Source: Paecilomyces variotii
Taxonomy: Eukaryota
NCBI GenBank assembly: GCA_004022145.1
Contig: RCNU01000026.1
DNA length: 26,434 nt
Strand: one strand, 5' to 3'
The notes beneath the pieces were generated by a model that saw only the letters and a program-made list of their open reading frames with translations, was not told where the DNA came from and searched no databases. Positions 14,335-26,434 of the stretch are shown piece after piece (position 1 is the first letter of the stretch; each line of letters starts with the position of its first letter). Both the position numbers and the translations under genes were made by a program.

Positions 14335-14480
14335 GGGCGCCACTTTTGACTCAAGACCGACCGTATCTTGCTGGGTGCGTAAGTACAGTTTTGATCCACA
14401 CATACATACCTCAAGCTACGAGGCATCGCCGTACCATTAGGATTTCTGGGTCTCTTGTCGAATATGCCAATTGATAACCC

Positions 14481-15989
14481 ATGGACCGGTTATCGATGGA
14501 ACATAACAGACAGCAGAGATCATCCTACACTGCTCTTTCACGAGATGAACAATGCTTCGAATTCGAGAATAACCATGAACTTGCATCACCTCTAACTAAG
14601 ATAAACCTCGATCAATTTATTCAGGATCCGGTATACCTGCAGTCACAGGAGACACTCCGCTCTTTGCTCTTCAGTACCGCCCAATCCACGGTGCCAACTA
14701 GAGCTCCTAGTCCCGTACAGGATGGTCAACCCCATACTATCTCGTCTCGTGGTATTTTGTCAAGCAGAAAGAGAATAGAATACCTGAAAAACTACGTTGC
14801 AGAAGTTGCTCCTTGGGTACGTTATGATGCTCATTTGCTCCGAGGCCATTACGAGTTGTATTGGCTAACTGACACAAAAGCTTGATATGTTCGATATGCA
14901 GCGCACCTTTGGTATCAAGATTATGGATATGTCTCAGAACTGCCCTGCTCTATTCTATGCTATCCTGGCTCTTTCATCAAGGCAGTTGGAACGAAAGAAT
15001 GAGATTCGCGATGTTTATGACAGTTTGGAGCTCTACCAGGAAGCAATTCGCCTTGTTACCCCGCTTCTTCATGCTAGGCATCTGGATGCACTCATTGTGT
15101 GCGTGATTCTATGCTGCCTTGAGATGATGTCTGCCAGTGCCAAAGACTGGAGGCGGCATCTTGAAGGATGTGCGGCATTATTTGATACTTTCAACATAAA
15201 TGGGTTCAGTGGCGGGGTATTGCAGGCGGTATTTTGGTGCTACGCTAGGATGGGTAAGTCATAGTATCTACTGACCTTTAACTAATGGTCCGGTTCTCAT
15301 TATATACAGATCTGTGCGGAGCGCTCATCTCTGATGGCACTGAGAGTACGCTCCTTCGTTTGGAGAAATGGCTGCCGCCTGGGACGCACGAGAATAAAGC
15401 GCGGAAGCTGTTCTCCGAAGCTGGATCTAATGATATGTATGCAAATTATGCTGTATACCTTTGCTCAAAAGTATGCGATTTGATCGCCGATCGTACGAAG
15501 TACACTGAACTCGGTGAAGATAATGGCTGTTCCACAGATGTGTTCGCGGAACGGTGGATGCGACTATGGGACGATCTTCAACTATGGATGAGAGATCGCC
15601 CTTCTGGGATTTGCCCCGTTCATGAAGCCGAGGGCGAACCATTCCCACGCGTGTTATTCGTGCACTGGGGGGCGATATCCTCCACTCAACTCATCCACAC
15701 TGCATGCATCCTCCTCCTCGACATGACTCCCCATAAGGCGCGACTTCAATCGAGTTCCAGCACCTCGAAGCTGTGGCATGCAAAACAGATATGTGGTATT
15801 TCACTGGCTAACCCGCACCACGGATGCCTAAACAATGCATTACAGCCACTGTGGATTGCTGGGCGGCTTTTTAGCCATGAGAGGGAGCATTCTTTAGTGG
15901 TGAAACTGATCCGCAGCATCGAAGCTACGACAGGCTGGGGGACCTGCTGGCGCATTTGCGATCTTGAATGTACATGGGGTTATATATAG
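14481..15989 (+). CDS. Fungal-specific transcription factor domain protein (C6/ArcA-like family) with no recognisable Zn2Cys6 cluster
   Basis: Exons ~14481-14816, 14881-15253, 15310-15989: YLKNYVAEVAPW|LDMFD...LFYAILALSSRQ...WRRHLEG...AVFWCYARM|DLCGALI...WHAKQICGISL...LQPLWIAG...TGW. The start codon is uncertain. Confidence 0.82.
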
Positions 15990-16073: not shown

Positions 16074-18187
16074 CTAGTTACCGTCCGCAAGTCTCCAAGT
16101 CTCATGGAGCTTAGCCAGCGGATCGTGCATATCCCACCCCGTCAGTTCTTGGATACGAAGAAACCCTTTCTCTATTTCTTTCTGTTGAGACTCGTGGGTC
16201 ATCTTTCTTGCAGCAACAAACAATGATGCAACCAGCGAGGGATCCCAGCATTCACGGCGGTCGTTGTTTAGAGCAATACCGCATATGCGATGAGCGTTCC
16301 AGAGAGGAGACATCATAACATTGTGATTATCCATGGATTTTAATGTTCGTGGTCTGCGATCAAGAAGAAGACACATGGCGGTATGGAGCATTTGGTTAGC
16401 AAATACGGCCGCGGAATTCGTGAAGAGTATCATTGGAAATGGGTTGACAGTTTCGGCCATCTCTGGAGTTGAAGAAAGTTCGAGCATCGGCCAGAACCCC
16501 TGCGGGCGATTCTTGTACCAGTCACCAAGACTTGCAACTAACATCTTCCACCTCTCTACGAATTTCTCTGGGCCCGTTGGTTGGAGCGGTGATTCTGTTT
16601 CCAGAGTCGCGCTTTGGAGCTGGACAGCCTGCGCACAAAGAATAAGGATGTACTGACTATGACGAAACACGACATCCAAGTGCGATTGCATGGCAGCCGC
16701 TGGGGCATGGACGTTCGCGTGAATCGGAACTCGCAATGTCGTATTATTAGTGAGTGCGCTGCTAATATCTACACGGAAACTCAGCTCAGTCTCCTTGCAT
16801 TGTTCGCTGTCGGTAGGACTTACCTATTCTAAGAAGGAGGCCATAAACTGCAGCCATCAGAACTGGCTCCCAGGGATTGGTAGAGACCGTAACAACAGAC
16901 TCGATCTCTTTAGCAATCTTCATCCGTGTATCGGAAAGCCTTGATGAAAGATGATAGACTACCCTTAGCACTGCAGCCACTGTTCGGTGCAGATTATTGG
17001 TTGCTTTTTCTATGTTCCGATATGACTCGGAGATGTCTACATATTTGTTTGCATCTGAGCGAAAAGTTGAAGGCGACGAGTCTAGTGAAGCCAGGGACTT
17101 TGCGGAGACAGCAAGCAATGCGTAAAGCAGCTCTCGTGATGCCATTGCCATCCGCGAAACCAATATGCCGAAAGAGTGTGACATGTCATATATATCCAAC
17201 TACGGCAATTAGCATGGAAATACTCGTCATCTTCCAGTGAAACTCACCCACGGAGCAATCTCATAACGGAAATGCTTGAGGAGTTCGAGGACTTGTTCCG
17301 AGTTTGTGTCTTGCGCAGAAACAAGATTGCCGGAGGAAACAGCCGAGCTCATACAGGCCGCTGCGGTAGGATTTAAAGACAGACATGAAGTCTGCTGAAC
17401 CGATACAGATAAATTTATATTCTCTGTAGGATGAGTTTCCATAGTCGAGTGTCCTAGTGCGAGTAGATCGTGGACGGCAGATTCTTCGTAGTGCTCGCCA
17501 AAGGAACTCCGACTTGATAGTCCAGAGGGGTTTCGCAGTAGGTGACGTGGATCTAAAGAAGATCTTACATTCAAGCCAACATCTCTTATCTCTTGCCCTG
17601 TAGCTGGATGAAGGTGCGAGGTAAAGCCGGTCTGGGATATTGTATTTTCGCCGCTAAGCCCAATGCTTTCTGCATTCTGTGCCTGAGAGCAGCTCTTGAC
17701 GAATGGGCTGATATTTTCACCGTGGATATTCGCATTCTGGGGTCTGTCTGGAGGAATCTCTGCCACAAACTTCAATGATGTCAATGACTAGAACTTTGGT
17801 ATGGGATAATATTACTGCTCGAAAACGTACCTGCACCGAGTTGTATCGATGATTGTCGCCTTCATGTGCGGCTGTAGATTGATCTAGCGTGTGCGCATTT
17901 TTCGAGAGAAAACTCAATCGAGTTCCGTAGACACATTCGAGATTCCTACTTCTGCAGCTGTGGCATACTGGCCTCTCCTCATCGCCTATGTTGCGATCAG
18001 TCTCTCCCCCTTATCGTACCCGAAATGGGCTCGACAGAGGGCGTCCGGTAGAAACAATATGCCCCTCTTTGCGGGTCACAGTTTCGCAACGGCGGGGCTT
18101 ACACTTGCGCTTTCTAGCACGGCATCTCAAGCATCCTGTTCGTGTCCTCCTGCGGGTTTGTCCAATACCTCGATCCCTATCACACAT
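16074..18187 (-). CDS. Zn(II)2Cys6 transcription factor
   Basis: ATG 18187; the first intron splits the cluster RTRTGCLRCRARKRK|CDEERPVCHSCRSRNLEC. Later exons give HFRYEIAPW|LDIYD...LLYALLAVSA...WNAHRICGIALNND...CWDPSLVASL...LTGW; stop at 16074. Confidence 0.9.
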
Positions 18188-18522: not shown

Positions 18523-18711
18523 TAATAATAACTAGCCAAAGCCACAGTTCGCTTGCCCGCTCCGCGATCTAAGTATCTTGGTGCCAAGAACTAGGTACCT
18601 ATACTATCTTTATATTCTGGTCTGGGCATTCCCACCTAGCTCCGACGACCTGTTTATTCTTCCATCTCACTTCAGCCCTCGCCCTAGAAATTCTCAACAA
18701 TACTACCCAAC

Positions 18712-19656
18712 ATGGTTGTCAATCCCAAAAAGAACTCCTTCGGAGACGAAATCACCGTCTGGACAGAGTTTCAGCTACCCAAGAGCGAAAAGTTCAGGGG
18801 TAAGAAATGGTCCGATTTCTTCCTTCTCATTCGGACGACACCTGGGCAGGGCTACTCCTGGTGGGGCCCGGTGCTAGAGCGTCAAGATCCTTATAATAAT
18901 ACTATGCTTCTGGTGCAAGGTATGTGTCCTTCCCAAACACGGATACCCAAAGCAAGAAAAATCGCTCAAAAAATCCTTTGATATTTAGTTTATGCATCAC
19001 ATGAGGCACTATTGCAATTTAGAGAATCGGACCAGTATGAAAAATATTGGTCAATCCTCTCGGAAGTCTCGGGCCCCAAGGTTCGCTTATTCCGTGCGCG
19101 CTCTCTAAGGCTTTTGACCTCTCTGAGAAAAGGCACTGCGCTAGTGACTGCCTATTTCCCGTGGCCTGTCAGCCAGTCGCAGAGGGAATCGGTCATTAAA
19201 CTCGAGGGGATCTGGGGTTTTGGTCTCGGGATGAGAGCAGCTCATCTTGCTCCTATGCATCATCCTTACAATATCAAATTGTGGGCAATGGAACCAGAGC
19301 AGAGAAATGGCCAGAAGGTACAGGCTATGGTCTGGTTGCATCCATGGAAAGATGCTGAGAAAGAGCGCAAACATAAAAGCCAGGAGGCTTTCTTCGAAGC
19401 TCTGCGTAGAAACATGAATAAGGAGGACTTGACAGGTATGGAGAAGGTCTATCAAGGACTAGAAGATACAGGAGCTATTGAGTACATAGAAGAACATTGC
19501 GCGTTTGAACTTATTCCCGATGTGAATGTGGCCAGGGATAGGTCACTGGACTCCGAAGGCAGTGATGGAGATACAAGTGTACATATTATCTTCTCTCTAT
19601 TTGCGTGTATTTCTCTGCTTTTATGTTTATGGCGGTTCTGTGCTAGCTTGTCATGA
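18712..19656 (+). CDS. Hypothetical protein, possible dimeric alpha/beta-barrel (ABM-like) fold, hydrophobic C-terminal segment
   Basis: Exons 18712-18919 and 18989-19656 join in frame (gtatgt..tttag). TPGQGYSWWGPVLERQD...LLVQVYASHEALLQFRESDQY resembles the fungal ABM-like pattern; the C-terminus is IIFSLFACISLLLCLW. Confidence 0.65.
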
Positions 19657-20158
19657 AAGAGTCACAATCTTTGCCGAACCATCCTCAAAACTCCATTTCT
19701 GTCCTCTGCAAGAAATACCAATATCCGACGCAAAACCAAACATGGTTTTCTGAGTTTCTATGAACGAGCTCTGTATAAGTATAACCTGCGGGGTTGCCAT
19801 CTCCAGGATTCCGATCGTCATATGAAGTCCATCCTGGTACTTGATTCTGGCTCCTCGTTATAAGACTGACGATCTCTTCATTAAGGTTAAAACTTACCTC
19901 GCCATTTGAATGTGATGATGTTATATATAACTTCAACAGAAAGCTTTTTATGTATTCACTGTAGAACATCCTGAAATTTTATCGAATCTGTTCCTGGCAT
20001 CTAACCTTATTTTCCCAACCGAGTCACCGATTGAAGTTTTATTCGAGTTCCTTATAGGTACCTATCTACAGAAATATTATATTTTTGGGGAAAATACACC
20101 TAGAAACCAGCATCAGGCGTCTTTAGTATTGTCAGTGAAAAAAATTATTTCCCAAAAC

Positions 20159-21651
20159 CTATTTCTGTGTCAAGTCAAGAAAATTAACGACCTTTCTTCC
20201 GGTGGCACTTCGATGAAACCCTCCATAATCAGGCAAATACTTCAAATCAAACAGCTCCTCGTTATTCTCAAACACCCTGAAAAATGTTCGCAATTCCTGC
20301 GTTAGCTCTTTCTCACCAATCTTACCCGGCCCATAGTCTCGTAGCAGACGCAGCTCAAGAACAATATCCAGATGATTACAGTCCCCTTCTCTGTAACGCC
20401 GAATAATCTGGTACTGCAAAATTCCCCACGATTCTGTTCTCATTTTGGCCTGTACTTGGGAGAATTCAAAATACTCCCCATACCAGTCAAAGCTGATTCG
20501 TCTGTCACGCCCATATATCCGTGCTATCCTATAGTGAGCTGCATCCTCAGGGGAAATCCTGTCCTTGATAATACTTGACAAAGAATGAAGAGAGCAGACA
20601 TCCCCACAGACATAACGGACAAGAGGATTGCGTAGTCGCTGTAGTGAAGTTTGAACAAGTAGGCCTTTTTCACCGTCAGGGACTGGCTGAAAATCGCGGT
20701 TGCTTGATTTGTTCGGATCCTCAATGGAAAAGGGTAAGACCTCAAGGTGTATAAGGCGATCATCGAACACAAAATCAGCGTAATTCTGATCTGCCGAGAT
20801 ATCTGTAAGTTCTACTGGCGAGGCACCCCATGGACCTGCCTCTGCACTGCCAATAACCGATGACACGGCTATGTTGGGAAAGACAGATTTCAGAAATCTG
20901 CGCTGAGACGGGGTCATGGGCTCGGATGTGTATAGGGCCTTGTCGACTGCCAACTGTTTCCTCTTCTCCTCCGGGAGGGTTGAAACATATCTGGCTAGCT
21001 GCGTGATTTGGCCTGCATCACCAGAAATTGCATTCACGCGATATTCAATGATTGTTTGGACAACCTGATCCTGCTCCATCTCACTTCCTGCACAGAGGAC
21101 TGTGGCCCCTGATCCTTCAAATACTTCGGCCATGAGATCCAGAGCTCTACTATTGTCAGCCTAGCTTTCCCACTTTGGATATTGGCACGCACCGATAGAG
21201 ATACCCTGCAACATGCATAGTCAACACCCAATCCCCAGGGCCCACGATGCCACAGGACCGCAGGAACGAGCCGAACACGGCTCGTTGCTGACGATTTTCA
21301 ATCGAATCCGTGGCAAAGACCATCGGAAGTCCACTTGCTGACCCTCCACCGGTTGTACTAATGTAGGTCCCTCGTCGATAACCATTCCGTGGGTCGCAGT
21401 CCGTGGTGAGTCGTGCAATCTCTTTATACCTGGCCTCGTTAGACGCGCGGAACGAAGAGGGGGCGAACTTACAATGTGTCTTTTCGAGTCAATGGGAATG
21501 ATGGCAACTTAAGCTCCTTGGGCGACTCTCTTTGCCTTTCCAAGATCATAGGTAGTTCTTCACTAGAAGGCGGGTATGTGTTATCAGAGTAGAAGGGATG
21601 AATGCTGGCTATTGCCAGCACATCGGCCATACAATAAGTATTATCGGCCAT
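20159..21651 (-). CDS. Adenylate-forming enzyme, phenylacetate-CoA ligase (PaaK)/F390-synthetase-like
   Basis: Three exons: HPFY...FPLTRKDTL|YK...YISTTGGGSASGLP (P-loop)...GYLYR|ALD...YTSEPM...GSAEAG...HLEVL...GLLVQTSLQRLRNPLVRYVCGD...IYGRD...RSATGRKV. These match the PaaK-type motifs PF, TSG, GEP, YGxxE, PxxRYxxGD, GR and the C-terminal K. Confidence 0.8.
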
Positions 21652-22695
21652 CTTCAGGTAGTCTGAATGAGGAGAGAAAGCGAGTAAAGGTCTAATTGAC
21701 TGTTAATATTTCCAATTAATTGTCTCGACCGCAGGGTATTTGTTTCGTTACAACTTACAAGTGAGGAAACGCCTGAAAACCAAGCGGGGGATTTTTTTTC
21801 TTGAGCGGTGAGCATTGGCCCCGCAGCCGTACTTGGAATACATCACAAGCTCAGCTTATGGAGTATTATAGTCAGGCACTGATACGCCGTATTATTCGAT
21901 ACTTTTGCTTTCAATTAGCATGTAGATCAAGGGATTGATCCCAAGAAAAGGGTAGTGGGTACCGGAGGATCCACGAGCTTAGATGCCCGCAGGGGCCCTG
22001 CTCGGTGATTGGCTCGTTTCATTGCCTACAACGATACAAAGCCCCAGACCGGACAAGCACATCCTGATATATCATAAAAGATAGAGACGTGTAATTATAA
22101 ATGGTGCGCAGTTAGCTAATACAAATACAGAGTGGAGAAAACTACTCCCCCAGGGAAACAACCACCGAAAGCCACAAATGCACAATTGCTCTGTGGCTGG
22201 CTGGAAAGGATTCTTAAAAAAGGGTTTCCGACTATCTACCTAAGTAGAGGGTTTTCTAGCCGCATCCATCCCGCCCAGCAAGACGAATAATAACCTAATT
22301 AATGGCCTGACTTCCATACAACAGAATTGTGATGTTATGGCCTGTGAAATCCATGTAATATCCAAGTCGTTCACCTTGTATGGTAATGCACTAAACCTAA
22401 CAAAAATATGGGCTTCAGGCGCAAATGGGCCACGGCCTGCGCTTGGTCTGGCATCTGCCAGGGAAATTTAATGCAAACCGACTGTGTGCTTCTCATCCGA
22501 GCCCGGTTCGTTGCAATATTAATAGTCCTCCTGGCACGTCTAGACATCCGAAGCACTGAGAATGTGTGCAGAGCAAATATTCCTGTTGTAATACAGTCCC
22601 GAGGTCAAGGAGAAAAGGAATCGCCCTTTCCATTGAACACATATTCTTGGATTTCATCTTCATTCCACTACGATCTCGTCCAGACTACACAGAAT

Positions 22696-24306
22696 ATGAA
22701 GAAACAGATCTGCCACTTCCACAGTATCTGCATTCCTCAAACGTCAGAGGATCTGGATCACCCTGCAGATGTCGAATCGCAAGAACGGTTAAACCTGGTC
22801 GACCAATATCACTCTGAGCTGCTAAAGATCAGCCCCAGGGAGACTTGGTCTGGCGATGCTCACCTGAAATCCGTACCATATCCAATTCTCGGTACGGAAA
22901 TCCACCAACGACAATTGTCGACACTGAGTGATGCCTTGGTTTTGGCCATCACCGATATCGTCGAGCGATGGTGGACCGACCCCGCGGCTCGCTTTCCAGA
23001 GCGAATGCCTATTGAACCGGTGGAGGAGGAACTGCTCAGAGTATGTACGACAGTAACCCAGCATACGTGGGTCCACAGTAACCCGGCATATGTGGATAGC
23101 GTTTCTAACAGGACCAGTGGATGCACCATCAAGAGCCTAACATACTACGCCCATTTAAATCCTGTAGTGGATCCTGGCGACCGGATTTCCTGCTTGAATC
23201 ATCACCAGAAGGGCCGGAAGAGACGGAAAACTATCGGATCTGTGAGATCAATGCTCGATTTTGCTGGAATGGTTTCCTCTATACTGCCTTCGGGCAGCAA
23301 GCATTGCTGAATATGAACATCGAAAGTTTTGGGCTTAGGGGTGCTACAGACCCACAGACGGTGAGTATTCCATATTTTGAAGCATAAACTATCGAGCACG
23401 GCTGAAACCTTCTAGGTTATAAGTGGACTTCAAGGTCTCTACAATGCTCAGCTCCCCTTGCATCTGGTTAAAGGAGAAGAGTATGGGTATGACATCCATA
23501 TGTTCGTTTCACTTGCACAACGTGTGTTGGGCATTCGCCCAAGAGTTATTCACCCGCATAGTTTGAGGCTTATGCCTGCTGCGTCTCCAGGAGGATACAA
23601 GCTATATTGCGTAGCAGAGGCTGGTTCCAAACAATCTGAAGTGACTAACGAAGCCGGTGAAATCCTGGAAGAGATTTACCAGCTGGGGCTGGAACTGCAC
23701 CAGCGAGAGCTCCTTGCTATGAGCTTTGAAATGCTTCAGCAGATTAGCCTAAGATGCTTCAACGACATGAGAACAGTGCTTCTTGTTCACGATAAACGTA
23801 TGCTTGGCTTGGTTCAGGAAGAACTTTCCTCCCTAGTCACGCGTAACGTGCTCACACCGCATGAAGCCGATGCCCTGGATCGAGGAATTGTGCCAACCAT
23901 CATTCCAGGATCGGAGAAACTGGAGCGTTTCATCTCGCAGTGCCAGGAAACAGAGTCACTCAAAGACCAGTACATTTTAAAACCAGTACGCAGTGGGAAA
24001 GGAGTCGGGATTCTTTTTGGTGACCAACTCACACATGAAGAATGGATGTCTGCTCTGCATCATATGCAATGCCCTCGGCTGATTCCCAGCAGAACAACCT
24101 ATGTTGTGCAAAAGCGGGTCGAACAGCGAAGGTACGATGTTCTATTTGAGGAGAACGATGGGGTTCAGAGCTTTCCTCTTGTTGGGACCTTTCATATCGT
24201 GCATGGAAGCTTCTTGGGTCTAGGGCTCTGGCGCAGCGGTCCCGGTCGTATTTGCGCTTTGAGCCGTGGAGGAGCCTGGATGTGTTCAGTGATGAAAAAG
24301 GACTGA
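22696..24306 (+). CDS. ATP-grasp superfamily ligase (glutathione-synthetase-like ATP-binding fold)
   Basis: Exons 22696-23040, 23118-23360, 23416-24306 in frame. Motifs WRPDFL, ICEINAR, HDKRML, YILKPVRSGKGVGI, YVVQKRV and GxWR match the RxD / EIN / LKP..GxG / YxxQ pattern of GS-like ATP-grasp ligases. Confidence 0.78.
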
Positions 24307-24975
24307 GCTTCGTGCGTTGGTCGCGCCTGTGTCATAACAGGTACTTTTTTTTGTATTTGGTTTTAACAATAGTTACTATTTAGCATCTTGCAATACAGTA
24401 GTGCATGCCTGGAAGAGACTAGAAAAATACTTCTGAGGCTAAAATGGGGTTTTATACATCTTTTCAGCTCTGTGACAACTTTTTGTCGACATCGACTCCA
24501 ACCAGGAGTACGAAAGGTCGAATCAGTAAGAAAGAAGCCTTTAGTAGCGGCGGTGAACGAATCCGTTTCCCCTCCAGTCCACAATTGCTGTTTATTTCGT
24601 TCACAGGCCTGATATATGACCTGTAAGTATTTGCTAGTCTTCTTTTTCACACATCTTAGTTTTGACTAGGATTTTTCTACTGTCTCGCAGCCCCATCTCT
24701 TGGAACCTCCATTCACCGCACTAGTGGTGCGATGCAATGACGCGAATGCAATACCCACATATTGTATCAGATCCCTTGTTTTGTCTAGTAGCGTATCAAT
24801 AACAATACACGGCCCATCCGTCGTCTACCATAGGTGAATGACCCGATGGGTCCAATGCAGTGGAGCTGAGGCAAAGAGGTACTAAGGAATAAATACTCAT
24901 GGATGAGCTGAATGCAGTATACATAATACTACAAATATCTATCGTTTCATCTTATCAATCAACTCAAGACCTACG

Positions 24976-25892
24976 ATGCTACGGCCACTGCGTCTTCTCC
25001 ATAAGATGTGGCAGCTGCGCGTTCGATCGCCCAGAATCCGTGAGCTATGAACAGTTATAAATACTGTTATTCGACTATACTAACCATGCAAACAATAGAT
25101 TGCCATATGTCTACCGTACCATTCCTCTCAGTGCCAAATCCCGATCTTGCGTCTCAGCCGAACCACCTGCGCATCGTCCATCACACACTTCAAACTTCTG
25201 GAATTCTGCATATTCAACTCGCTCTTCCAGACAAAGACAGTCATTACATCCAGAACCTTGTCTTGGGCCTGCACAAACAACACGCCCACGGATTACCAGT
25301 TACGCACAGTGCTGACCGTGGTTGGATGTGGGACATCCGGCCGAGTCCAGAAAGCTTCCAGAGTAACAACACTCAAGCTCGATCTGAAACTATGGAAGAA
25401 TTCCCCTGGCACACAGACTGCAGCTACGAGGAGTCTCCGCCCCGATTCTTTGCTCTGCAGGTGCTACAGCCGGACCAATGCGGCGGTGGTACCTTGTCAG
25501 TTATGAACGTCGATGAACTCCTTCCGCTGCTTCGTCCGTCGGCCAGACAAACTCTTTTTAGCCCTAGTTTTCGGATCAGAGTTCCACCAGAATTCGTCAA
25601 GGACAAAGGCAAAACTAGTATTGTCGATAGTCTCCTGGCAACCAACACCGGTGGCAAATCTACTAAACTCCGCTTCCGGGAGGACATCGTCACGCCGCTC
25701 TCAGATAAAGCAGCCGAGGCACTAGCGGAGCTGAAAAGCGTCCTACTCAGCTCAGCAGTTAAAGCGCGGATTCTTGACTTAACAGCCCAGAAATTGTCTC
25801 GAGGAGCGATCATTCTCATGGATAATGGGCGTTGGCTTCACGCACGAAGTGTGGTCAAAGATCCAAATCGGCATTTGCGCCGAGTGCGTTAG
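24976..25892 (+). CDS. TauD/TfdA / clavaminate-synthase-like Fe(II)/2-oxoglutarate dioxygenase (possibly C-terminally truncated)
   Basis: Exons 24976-25039 and 25099-25892. FPWHTDCSYE (HxD), GGGTL, DNGRWLHARS (distal His) and RHLRRVR (2OG-binding Arg); ends in TAG followed by in-frame DACQF... to TAA at 25976. Confidence 0.88.
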
Positions 25893-26329
25893 GACGCCTG
25901 TCAATTTGCTTCCCCTTCGCACACTGCACATGCCGGATTTCGGTTCGATAAGGCTGCAAAGTTTGGCGGCCTGTAATTCAAGCGCTAGCCGCTATTTTTG
26001 GGGGGTTCTTTTCGCAAGTCTAAGAGAAAGGGGCAAATCACGGCGCAGGATCGCTGCTACGTATACTAGCGTTCGGGTCGGTCCGCCGATTGTCGATCCT
26101 AGTTATGCAGTGGCTCAAATCCATAGGCTATCTGATCAGCCGGATCATAATTATAGGTGTATTTAGATAGCGCAGTAAATGGCAGGATTATAATAAGACC
26201 AATCCACAGTAGTTATATAGGCGGTTCGGTCTGGTTCTACCGTAGGTACATAGCGGTTTAGTTTACGATATATAGCTAACCTGGATCACGGGACCTCTGA
26301 TTACGGAGCGAAGACGTGCCCGTGCAGCA

Positions 26330-26434
26330 TTAGGGTTTTAGGGTTTTAGGGTTTAGGGTTTAGGGTTAGGGTTTAGGGTTTAGGGTTTAGGGTTTAGGGT
26401 TTAGGGTTTAGGGTTTAGGGTTTTAGGGTTTAGG
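26330..26434 (+). repeat. Telomere repeat tract, T2-4AGGG (predominantly TTTAGGG)
   Basis: Parsed directly: 2x TTAGGG, 9x TTTAGGG, 3x TTTTAGGG and a terminal TTTAGG; the G-rich strand runs 5'->3' toward the sequence end. Confidence 0.97.

Follow-up and report, generated by a model that had tools for sequence, protein, structure and literature searches.

The last three genes before a telomere in Paecilomyces variotii raise the question of which product, if any, they could assemble in a region that lacks the usual core biosynthetic genes. The window analysed here is the whole stretch of 26,434 nucleotides of contig RCNU01000026.1 (assembly GCA_004022145.1). Its three cassette genes occupy positions 20159-25976 and encode an adenylase or amide bond synthetase (ABS, minus strand), an ATP-grasp ligase (plus strand) and a TauD/clavaminate synthase (CAS)-type oxygenase (plus strand). 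Such a three-gene cassette had been proposed in a preliminary description of the locus, and all three genes could be located. The shared divergent promoter region of about 1 kb that it mentioned corresponds to the 1,044 bp separating the ABS and ATP-grasp start codons. Its statement that the window contains no PKS, NRPS or terpene core gene agrees with a Pfam scan of 25 ORF pieces, which revealed neither a PKS or NRPS domain nor one of a terpene synthase; stop-to-stop ORFs in the window reach at most 365 aa. The proposed end of the cassette at 25976 holds for the oxygenase stop codon of other strains, whereas the frame in the window ends at a TAG. Between 25976 and the telomere array, no ORF of at least 60 aa with a family match was found. 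The distance from the cassette to the array is approximately 350 bp.

A biosynthetic precedent for this gene set is available. Liu et al., Nat Chem Biol 2025 (PMC12568646) attributed E-64 and its analogs to the A. flavus and A. oryzae clusters cp1 and cp2, with cp1A, cp1B and cp1D defined as the minimum cassette for trans-epoxysuccinyl-amino acid-amine cysteine protease inhibitors. These genes encode an Fe/2OG fumarate epoxidase, an ATP-grasp enzyme (Cp1B) and an amide bond synthetase (Cp1D), and the three-gene cassette was reported from more than 100 fungal species in more than 40 genera, with the PLP-dependent decarboxylase gene cp1C being dispensable and often absent from homologous clusters (PMC12568646). 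It is highly probable that the window carries a subtelomeric P. variotii copy of this 'cp' cassette for NRPS-free synthesis of E-64-type cysteine protease inhibitors. The preliminary description had recognised no characterised product, but the E-64 class is known from the cp1/cp2 clusters; since this product class is characterised and its minimum cassette is so widespread, the claim of novelty falls (PMC12568646). The cassette is genuine but of a known kind, and what is new is the TAG allele of the oxygenase and a set of differing pocket residues in the ATP-grasp ligase. The word 'Paecilomyces' does not occur in the main text of PMC12568646, and none of the papers searched mentions 'Paecilomyces variotii' together with 'E-64'.

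We infer the likely substrates and product of the window's cassette by analogy with the system characterised in A. flavus. The TauD/CAS-like Fe(II)/2-oxoglutarate oxygenase would convert free fumarate to (2S,3S)-trans-epoxysuccinate, the Cp1B-type ATP-grasp enzyme would phosphorylate one carboxylate of this warhead and couple a hydrophobic L-amino acid to it, and the Cp1D-type ABS would activate the resulting pseudodipeptide by adenylating its amino-acid carboxylate and join it to an amine, usually a polyamine (for example putrescine, cadaverine or agmatine). The NRPS-independent logic anticipated earlier, with one amide bond made by an ATP-grasp ligase and one by an ANL adenylase beside a CAS-like oxygenase, is that of PMC12568646. 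On the other hand, the suggestion of an amino-acid-modifying oxygenase has to be revised, as free fumarate is the substrate that the characterised enzyme turns by epoxidation into (2S,3S)-trans-epoxysuccinate (PMC12568646). According to the same paper, Cp1A can also desaturate succinate, and Cp1D uses an amine instead of CoA as acceptor of the acyl-adenylate (PMC12568646). The labels Cp1A-type and Cp1D-type used here are based on fold, family and linkage rather than on direct comparison with the characterised enzymes.

Table 1. Coordinates of the cassette genes and neighbouring features in the window
Feature	Position	Strand	Details
Predicted Cp1D-type amide bond synthetase (467 aa; PaaK-like fold, ANL superfamily)	20159-21651	-	Intact frame
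ABS exons	21651-21473, 21429-21193, 21146-20159; stop codon 20161-20159	-	Gene model
ABS introns	21430-21472, 21147-21192	-	CT..AC ends (GT..AG on minus strand); removed in X14 RNA contig
ABS mRNA 3' UTR to poly(A) site near 20101	20101-20158	-	X14 RNA contig ends at 20101, loose T run on + strand
ABS 5'-UTR intron, probable	21692-21758	-	Joint 21691>21759, CT..AC ends, one X14 contig
Divergent intergenic region, ABS start codon to ATP-grasp start codon	21652-22695		1,044 bp, from gene models
Cp1B-type ATP-grasp ligase, 492 aa	22696-24306	+	Exons 22696-23040, 23118-23360, 23416-24306
ATP-grasp introns	23041-23117, 23361-23415	+	GT..AG; removed in X14 RNA contig
Predicted Cp1A-type Fe(II)/2OG oxygenase (TauD/CAS-like), truncated allele, 285 aa	24976-25892	+	Exons 24976-25039, 25099-25892
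Oxygenase intron	25040-25098	+	GT..AG; removed in X14 contig
Nonsense codon TAG (other alleles TGG = Trp286 of P0241)	25890-25892	+	tblastn of P0241, P0242 reads W
Remnant of ancestral oxygenase frame, now 3' UTR in window strain	25893-25976	+	27 codons + TAA at 25974-25976
Telomere repeat array, window end	26330-26434		TTAGGGT unit, period 7, 14.7 copies

The ATP-grasp ligase provides the closest connection to an enzyme of the published pathway. Its translation is letter-for-letter identical to the P. variotii protein P0001, residues 39-491 of which match PDB 9CJN ('Ligase Cp1B') with an E-value of 4.4e-156. P0001 is 51.7% identical over 487 aa to the A. flavus protein P0068 (502 aa), which in the printed alignments is nearly letter for letter the 9CJN chain. 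The Cp1B residues R139/D141/E163/N165, at which alanine abolished or attenuated activity (PMC12568646), correspond to R136/D138/E158/N160 in the window's protein, and this catalytic R/D/E/N set is invariant in 20/20 aligned ATP-grasp homologs (the window's own among them). A precomputed PF28486.1 annotation (family name AnkG_N) is present on P0001 and on all 120 relatives among the matches listed; the Pfam scan of the ATP-grasp exon pieces gave no match, the scanned model set presumably being without PF28486. The family identity of this enzyme is established.

The ABS is identical to the P. variotii protein P0121 at 437/467 positions and has relatives with 55-66% identity in section Flavi. Its ANL-like motifs (TGGGS, YTSE, GSAEAG, RYxxGD, GRD and S-TG-K) are invariant in 32/32 aligned homologs, and its fold class is established by an AlphaFold model whose best matches are PaaK1 and PaaK2 (E 1.4e-22, TM 0.53-0.71, identity 18-20%). 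By sequence, no PDB chain was matched, which fits the statement in PMC12568646 that Cp1D represents a distinct ABS family. An identity as a PaaK-type phenylacetate-CoA ligase was also considered and is not supported by the sequence: the score against Pfam AMP-binding is below threshold (17.9 bits; cutoff 29.9), sequence similarity to PDB chains is lacking, and the fold alone matches.

Transcripts of the cassette were found in the metatranscriptome X14, where each of the three genes is represented by RNA contigs that lack its coding introns (five in total, all spliced out) and have poly(A) or poly(T) loose ends. The contigs reach 21691 on the ABS side (21759 and beyond via a joint) and begin at 22555 on the ATP-grasp side; the ATP-grasp mRNA has its poly(A) loose end behind 24456, and the poly(A) end of the oxygenase mRNA is near 26197. 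The 5'-UTR intron of the ABS is tentative because the shorter side of its joint comprises only 30 letters. Splicing was seen in X14 only of the two RNA libraries, the contigs of X19 being unspliced and diverged and perhaps derived from DNA.

The oxygenase matches Pfam TauD above cutoff (E 1.5e-11, 45.1 bits), with positions 76-266 of the 267-position profile covered. By fold it is closest to AsnO, KDO1, CsiD and clavaminate synthase (E 8e-14 for the CAS/AsnO/CsiD fold, with 17-20% identity), which establishes the fold class, and 30/30 homologs keep the HxD motif (WHTDC) and the distal His (WLHAR) unchanged. It is identical to the P. variotii protein P0241 at 306/313 positions, with the stop counted as X. 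The TAG shortens the protein by 28 codons (285 aa versus 313 aa at full length), and the tblastn alignments of P0241 and P0242 run on to 25973.

This truncation means that the E-64-type pathway may be broken in the window strain, and it introduces the most serious alternative, in which the locus is a decaying, non-functional subtelomeric remnant with an inactivated oxygenase and without an epoxide-warhead inhibitor. We regard this as the less probable outcome, though one with a substantial chance of being correct. The TAG at 25890-25892 stands in place of a TGG in conspecific alleles and interrupts the invariant RVRWD strand within R279-D287, a segment in which R279, H280, L281, R283, V284, R285, W286 and D287 (P0241 numbering) are invariant in 30/30 oxygenase homologs. 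W286 and D287 are removed together with the nearly invariant A288 and F291, and residues 280-288 form the last core strand of the AlphaFold model (mean pLDDT 84 for residues 281-290). Against complete decay, both iron-binding histidines, the aspartate and an Arg-rich stretch are retained upstream of the TAG, the TauD profile is matched all the way to the stop, and the ABS and ATP-grasp frames are intact. Moreover, the A at 25891 occurs only in the window and X2, which may itself be the source of the window; X14, X19 and X6 have G there. In the characterised system, transformants without cp1A still yielded fumaryl and malyl analogs, implying that the remaining two genes could still give a product (PMC12568646). 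Given the loss of the invariant Trp-Asp end of the strand, the window strain may produce no epoxide warhead and, by analogy with these transformants, may instead give fumaryl or malyl analogs, or nothing.

A further possibility is that the same three families serve other chemistry, in which case the oxygenase would use an amino acid or a different dicarboxylate as substrate and the product would not be an epoxysuccinyl peptide. The proposed amino-acid pocket of Cp1B (F175/V228/V477/I488) is replaced by Y170/Y221/L467/L478 in the window's protein, whose overall identity to Cp1B is approximately 52%. In addition, PMC12568646 cautions that Cp1B and Cp1D homologs with more than 30% identity are also known from non-homologous clusters unrelated to E-64, and the nearest solved folds of the oxygenase are CsiD-like or AsnO-like, with other substrates. 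However, the arrangement of the trio is the very definition of E-64-like clusters in PMC12568646, and the cyanobacterial MfaA, only about 20% identical to the Cp1 enzymes, also forms (2S,3S)-trans-epoxysuccinate, which implies that epoxidation is conserved across much larger distances (PMC12568646). For all three enzymes, the paralog groups of section Flavi diverge from each other about as much as from the window's proteins. Other chemistry is therefore considered improbable, and the E-64-type assignment is retained.

The linkage of the three genes is conserved in other genomes. In P. paradoxum, the consecutive locus tags N7457_008576, 008577 and 008578 were recovered one from each of the three protein searches, and near-consecutive tags were found in P. 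atrosanguineum, Thermoascus crustaceus, Ciborinia camelliae, Hypoxylon sp., P. pulvis and Emydomyces testavorans. Among 17 metagenome loci encoding an ATP-grasp relative, all three genes are present at four, and these four are the only ones in which this gene is flanked by 4.7 kb or more on each side; five more have the ATP-grasp and TauD genes, so that 9/17 include at least the oxygenase. The 8/17 loci without a partner gene are contigs of at most 3.4 kb or are cut 320 bp upstream. The preliminary description had regarded unlinked homologs and absent co-expression as arguments against a pathway; instead, linkage was observed across fungal genera and in independent metagenome contigs, and spliced RNA contigs of all three genes occur in one sample (X14). 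A PLP-dependent decarboxylase (cp1C) was not detected in the 26-kb window, nor was a transporter adjoining the cassette. That a CoA ligase, a glutathione-synthetase-like ligase and a taurine-type dioxygenase are merely unrelated neighbours at a chromosome end, as the database names of their relatives ('phenylacetate-CoA ligase PaaK-like', 'glutathionylspermidine synthase', 'taurine catabolism dioxygenase') and the missing cp1C and transporter might suggest, is extremely unlikely, being already contradicted by this conserved linkage, as well as by the close relationship of the ATP-grasp ligase to an enzyme of measured function (Cp1B) and the dispensability and frequent absence of cp1C in homologous clusters (PMC12568646).

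Comparison with known systems places the locus closest to the cp clusters. The PaaK phenylacetate-CoA ligases (PDB 2Y27 and 2Y4O) are the top structural matches of the ABS model, at 18-20% identity. The clavaminate synthase/AsnO/CsiD group shares its fold and HxD...H iron site with the window's oxygenase at 17-20% identity, whereas the characterised Cp1A epoxidises fumarate, not an amino acid (PMC12568646). The bacterial dapdiamide enzymes DdaG and DdaF (ABS and ATP-grasp) are similar in their chemical logic, a pseudotripeptide with a warhead being assembled by two stand-alone enzymes that form amide bonds at the expense of ATP, an analogy that inspired the authors of PMC12568646; however, they are not homologous, and the enzyme order and warhead chemistry are also unlike (PMC12568646). 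Cp1D and Cp2D are described in that paper as having no sequence similarity to characterised bacterial ABSs (PMC12568646). AnkG, an ATP-grasp enzyme proposed to act as amidoligase in the ank pathway to NK13650, is linked by name to Pfam PF28486 (AnkG_N), the family in the precomputed annotation of relatives of the window's ATP-grasp ligase, but AnkG and Cp1B/Cp2B belong to separate network clades with about 30% identity (PMC12568646), in contrast to about 52% between the window's protein and Cp1B. Compared with the cp1/cp2 clusters, the window has an ATP-grasp ligase about 52% identical to Cp1B with the pocket Y/Y/L/L, not F/V/V/I, is without cp1C, carries a truncated oxygenase and lies beside a telomere array. 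Common to both are three enzyme families in one cassette (an Fe/2OG oxygenase, a Cp1B-type ATP-grasp enzyme and a PaaK-fold ANL amide bond synthetase) without an NRPS, and a linkage of the trio that is kept in many fungi.

The three genes at the telomeric end of the window correspond to the Cp1A/Cp1B/Cp1D trio, with Cp1A and Cp1D assigned by family, fold and linkage, and by the tests available the cassette, whose function is putative, belongs to the E-64-type cp cluster family. The NRPS-independent biosynthesis of E-64 and its analogs was described by Liu et al. (Nat Chem Biol 2025; PMC12568646). In the main text of that paper cp1A, cp1B and cp1D are named as the minimum biosynthetic cassette, which was detected across more than 40 genera and more than 100 species of fungi. 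Gene models were built from tblastn of homologous proteins and the splice joints of RNA contigs, with translation used as a check. The genes of the window are interrupted by short introns and are eukaryotic in character; GT..AG ends were found at all five coding introns of the three genes, and the divergent genes for the amide bond synthetase (ABS)/adenylase and the ATP-grasp ligase have their start codons 1,044 bp apart. Because these splice-supported, translation-checked models place the genes there, the coordinates and gene order of the preliminary description proved correct. Exon 23416-24306 matches P0001 (492 aa, Paecilomyces variotii) with 100% identity, and the translated ABS is identical to the P. 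variotii protein P0121 at 437 of 467 positions. Divergence between alleles was uneven among the matches listed (ATP-grasp 100%, best ABS 93%, best oxygenase 98%). Since no identical protein appeared among these matches for the ABS and oxygenase, the record of the source strain may leave both genes unannotated.

Features of the cassette and its surroundings in the window
Feature	Position	Strand	Remarks
Fungal_trans_2-type transcription factor gene	14478-15989	plus	
Fungal_trans_2-type transcription factor gene	16074-17787	minus	
Gene adjoining the ABS	18536-19656	plus	
30-base word	19909-19938		
ABS/adenylase	exons 21651-21473, 21429-21193, 21146-20159	minus	467 aa, frame intact
Stretches without X14 coverage	22040-22467, 24608-24821		intergenic
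ATP-grasp ligase	exons 22696-23040, 23118-23360, 23416-24306	plus	492 aa, equal to P0001
Oxygenase	exons 24976-25039, 25099 onward	plus	
Stop of the oxygenase frame in the window	25890-25892	plus	TAG
Stop in the longer oxygenase alleles	25974-25976	plus	TAA
Telomere array	26330-26434		7-base unit TTAGGGT, 14.7 copies; end of the window

The most direct link to the E-64 pathway comes from the ATP-grasp enzyme. Its exon pieces had no match in the local copy of Pfam, and PF28486 was present on all 120 relatives among the matches listed in the exon search (precomputed annotation); in the protein atlas this family appears as AnkG_N, with glutathionylspermidine-synthase and glutathione-synthase clusters as look-alikes. 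The sole solved-structure match of P0001 was 9CJN_A, 'Ligase Cp1B' (E 4.4e-156, residues 39-491). According to the main text of PMC12568646, Cp1B, formerly a 'hypothetical protein', is an ATP-grasp enzyme by crystal structure and ADP release, and couples the warhead with a hydrophobic L-amino acid. In the printed alignments the A. flavus protein P0068 (502 aa) follows the 9CJN chain nearly letter for letter; its length suits the residue numbering of that paper, and it shares 51.7% identity with P0001 over 487 aa. Alanine at Cp1B R139, D141, E163 or N165 abolished or attenuated activity (main text of PMC12568646), and the corresponding residues of the window's enzyme (R136, D138, E158 and N160) do not vary among the 20 homologs aligned. 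The side chain of the amino acid is proposed there to be housed by F175, V228, V477 and I488, positions occupied in the window's enzyme by Y170, Y221, L467 and L478 and in its nearest relatives by F or Y, Y or F, L and L. The pocket remains hydrophobic yet differs from that of Cp1B, so that the preferred amino acid cannot be inferred from it.

The ABS showed a sub-threshold match to Pfam AMP-binding and no match in a sequence search of the PDB. A model built from P0121 and 31 homologs (mean pLDDT 86.7) had PaaK1/PaaK2 and other PaaK-family ligases as its best fold matches (E 1.4e-22, 18-20% identity). Motifs of ANL type, as named in the literature on this superfamily, are invariant in all 32 aligned homologs. 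Cp1D is presented in the main text of PMC12568646 as an ANL enzyme that works as an amide bond synthetase and attaches the amine.

The oxygenase exon matched Pfam TauD above the curated cutoff, and a sequence match was found with the asparagine oxygenase AsnO. For P0241, a full-length conspecific protein, the AlphaFold model (mean pLDDT 77.5) best matched the folds of AsnO, KDO1, CsiD/GlaH and clavaminate synthase, with E near 1e-13 to 1e-11. The preliminary labels of the three enzymes (PaaK-like adenylase, ATP-grasp ligase and CAS/TauD oxygenase) all held. Cp1A is the Fe/2OG oxygenase that converts free fumarate to (2S,3S)-trans-epoxysuccinate (main text of PMC12568646). Relatives in section Flavi share 56-69% identity with P0241 for the oxygenase and 46-66% with P0121 for the ABS, and the paralog groups of both enzymes in this section diverge mutually about as far as from the P. 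variotii proteins, in agreement with the main text of PMC12568646, where cp1 proteins are roughly 50% identical to those of cp2.

Cp1A-like oxygenases also carry an N-terminal extension, encoded here by exon 1, which is rich in Arg and Lys and poor in acidic residues in the alignment. In 28 of 30 aligned homologs, 11-58 residues precede the conserved core, and in 21 of these 28 they include neither Asp nor Glu. Such an Arg-rich, acid-free extension resembles a mitochondrial presequence. Mitochondria are where fumarate, succinate and 2-oxoglutarate are made, and conservation of the extension suggests that synthesis of the warhead might take place in this compartment. The string 'mitochondri' does not occur in the main text of PMC12568646.

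Whether the trio is kept together elsewhere was examined in two ways. Comparison of neighbouring locus tags across the three homolog searches revealed adjacent or nearly adjacent genes in P. paradoxum (N7457_008576 for the ABS, 008577 for the ATP-grasp enzyme and 008578 for the oxygenase), P. atrosanguineum (N7448_002390, 002391), Thermoascus crustaceus (VTN00DRAFT_7991, 7992), Ciborinia camelliae (NHQ30_004626, 004628, 004630), Hypoxylon sp. (M434DRAFT_19998, 19999), P. pulvis (N7503_000391, 000392) and Emydomyces testavorans (PRK78_006814, 006815). Independently, 17 metagenome loci encoding ATP-grasp relatives were searched with the ABS and oxygenase proteins. The complete trio was found in four (L001, L002, L008 and L010, of which L001 and L002 seem to come from one organism), these being every locus with at least 4.7 kb on each side; five others (L003, L004, L011, L014 and L017) contained the ATP-grasp and oxygenase genes, and the remaining eight the ATP-grasp gene alone, seven of them on contigs of at most 3.4 kb and one (L005) cut 320 bp upstream of the gene. 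The co-localisation in other genomes expected for a genuine pathway was therefore observed in several fungi and in these four loci. A 340-aa predicted protein from a read assembly (P0284) carries PF28486 and TauD labels together; a gene prediction that merged neighbouring genes is a likelier explanation than a true fusion.

Of 24 sequencing runs listed for the stretch, four (X14, X19, X2 and X6) were compared with it. The trio is transcribed and processed in one sample, the food-fermentation metatranscriptome X14, because its contigs lack the introns of the ABS (two), ATP-grasp (two) and oxygenase (one) genes and end in loose poly(T)/poly(A) at about 20101, 24456 and 26197, the 3' ends of the three genes. 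The stretches without X14 coverage are intergenic. The RNA check advised earlier thus returned spliced, polyadenylated transcripts of all three genes in that sample, with levels that cannot be ranked, since assembled contigs cannot order expression; differences in depth between genes were left out of account. The RNA library X19 was rejected as evidence of transcription, all of its contigs being unspliced, with 124 and 152 mismatched letters on the two longest pieces.

The oxygenase frame of the window ends prematurely. At the codon of its TAG, the P. variotii alleles P0241 and P0242 have Trp, followed by 27 further codons before TAA. At base 25891 the window has A, as does X2, a nearly identical assembly from which the window itself may derive; X14, X19 and X6 have G. 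A micro-intron excising the TAG was rejected, as the only surrounding GT...AG spans 9 bases and other strains read through with TGG. The stop interrupts residues R279-D287 (P0241 numbering), with loss of W286 and D287. Among the 30 aligned homologs, R279, H280, L281, R283, V284, R285, W286 and D287 never vary, R282, A288 and F291 are nearly invariant, and the shortest natural tails in this alignment extend 7 residues beyond R285. In the P0241 model, the last core strand covers 280-288 (mean pLDDT 84 over 281-290), and residues 296-313 are disordered. The truncated protein still has the iron ligands and the Arg-rich stretch. Judged from conservation and the model, truncation is likely to cause loss of oxygenase activity. 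If so, fumaryl and malyl analogs, not the epoxide, are predicted, as these were the products of a cp1A-less strain (main text of PMC12568646). P. variotii strains differ in whether the gene of the warhead-forming enzyme carries this nonsense mutation, which provides a natural experiment on the products of the two ligases when the epoxide is missing.

Pfam assigned the larger upstream ORFs to Mpv17/PMP22, a sugar transporter, a zinc alcohol dehydrogenase, a transketolase and two Fungal_trans_2 transcription factors, and some ORFs had no Pfam family. No PKS, NRPS or terpene-synthase domain was detected in the 25 ORF pieces scanned, in accord with the absence of such core genes from the window noted earlier; its longest stop-to-stop ORF is 365 aa. 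The two transcription factor genes are convergent and lie 2-6 kb from the cassette, and either could be its regulator. The gene adjoining the ABS had no Pfam family above cutoff (Ring_hydroxyl_A, E 0.002, below cutoff), and its protein atlas leads were fungal hypothetical clusters and an ABM-domain cluster (score 0.91; ABM in 30% of members). Just upstream of the cassette, a 30-base word is common to several otherwise unrelated contigs (X2, X14 and X19), and in X2 the terminal 6.4 kb form a separate contig beginning at this word. The word may represent either a short dispersed repeat or a junction of the assembly graph bordering the terminal segment.

With regard to products, the aligned pocket of the P. 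variotii/Penicillium roqueforti/A. fumigatus clade reads Y or F, Y or F, L and L, versus F, V, V and I in Cp1B, and this clade may make an undescribed E-64 analog with another amino-acid or amine part. The nonsense allele would then be a natural 'warhead-off' variant yielding fumaryl or malyl pseudopeptides in place of the epoxide. It is rather unlikely that an undescribed analog, a 'warhead-off' allele and mitochondrial warhead synthesis all hold together. P. variotii is a heat-resistant mould of food spoilage and fermentation. Its carriage and transcription of an E-64-type cassette may be relevant to the activity of proteases in fermented foods, and the ATP-grasp enzyme and ABS of this clade could widen the substrate range of the Cp1B/Cp1D biocatalytic toolkit.

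Among literature from 2023 onward on fungal epoxysuccinyl, ATP-grasp or E-64 subjects, only Liu et al. 2025 and the preprint were relevant, and no paper in the collection searched names both 'Paecilomyces variotii' and 'E-64'. The main text of PMC12568646 does not mention Paecilomyces, nor does it contain gene identifiers, 'telomer' or 'self-resistance'; as its species list sits in supplementary figures, P. variotii may already be counted among the more than 100 species. Since the pathway was solved in 2025, the locus adds one more member, not a principle. The statement in the preliminary description that no characterised product was recognised is accordingly out of date, and its pathway logic (no NRPS, two amide-forming ligases and an oxygenase) was vindicated by the match to the cp system, showing that the logic of a cluster without a core gene can be worked out from its sequence alone. 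Compared with the cp cluster, the cassette has the same three enzyme families and no NRPS. On the other hand, it lacks cp1C in the window, whose PLP decarboxylase product is dispensable (main text of PMC12568646), its ATP-grasp pocket residues differ from those of Cp1B, its oxygenase is truncated in the window's strain, and it lies directly at a telomere.
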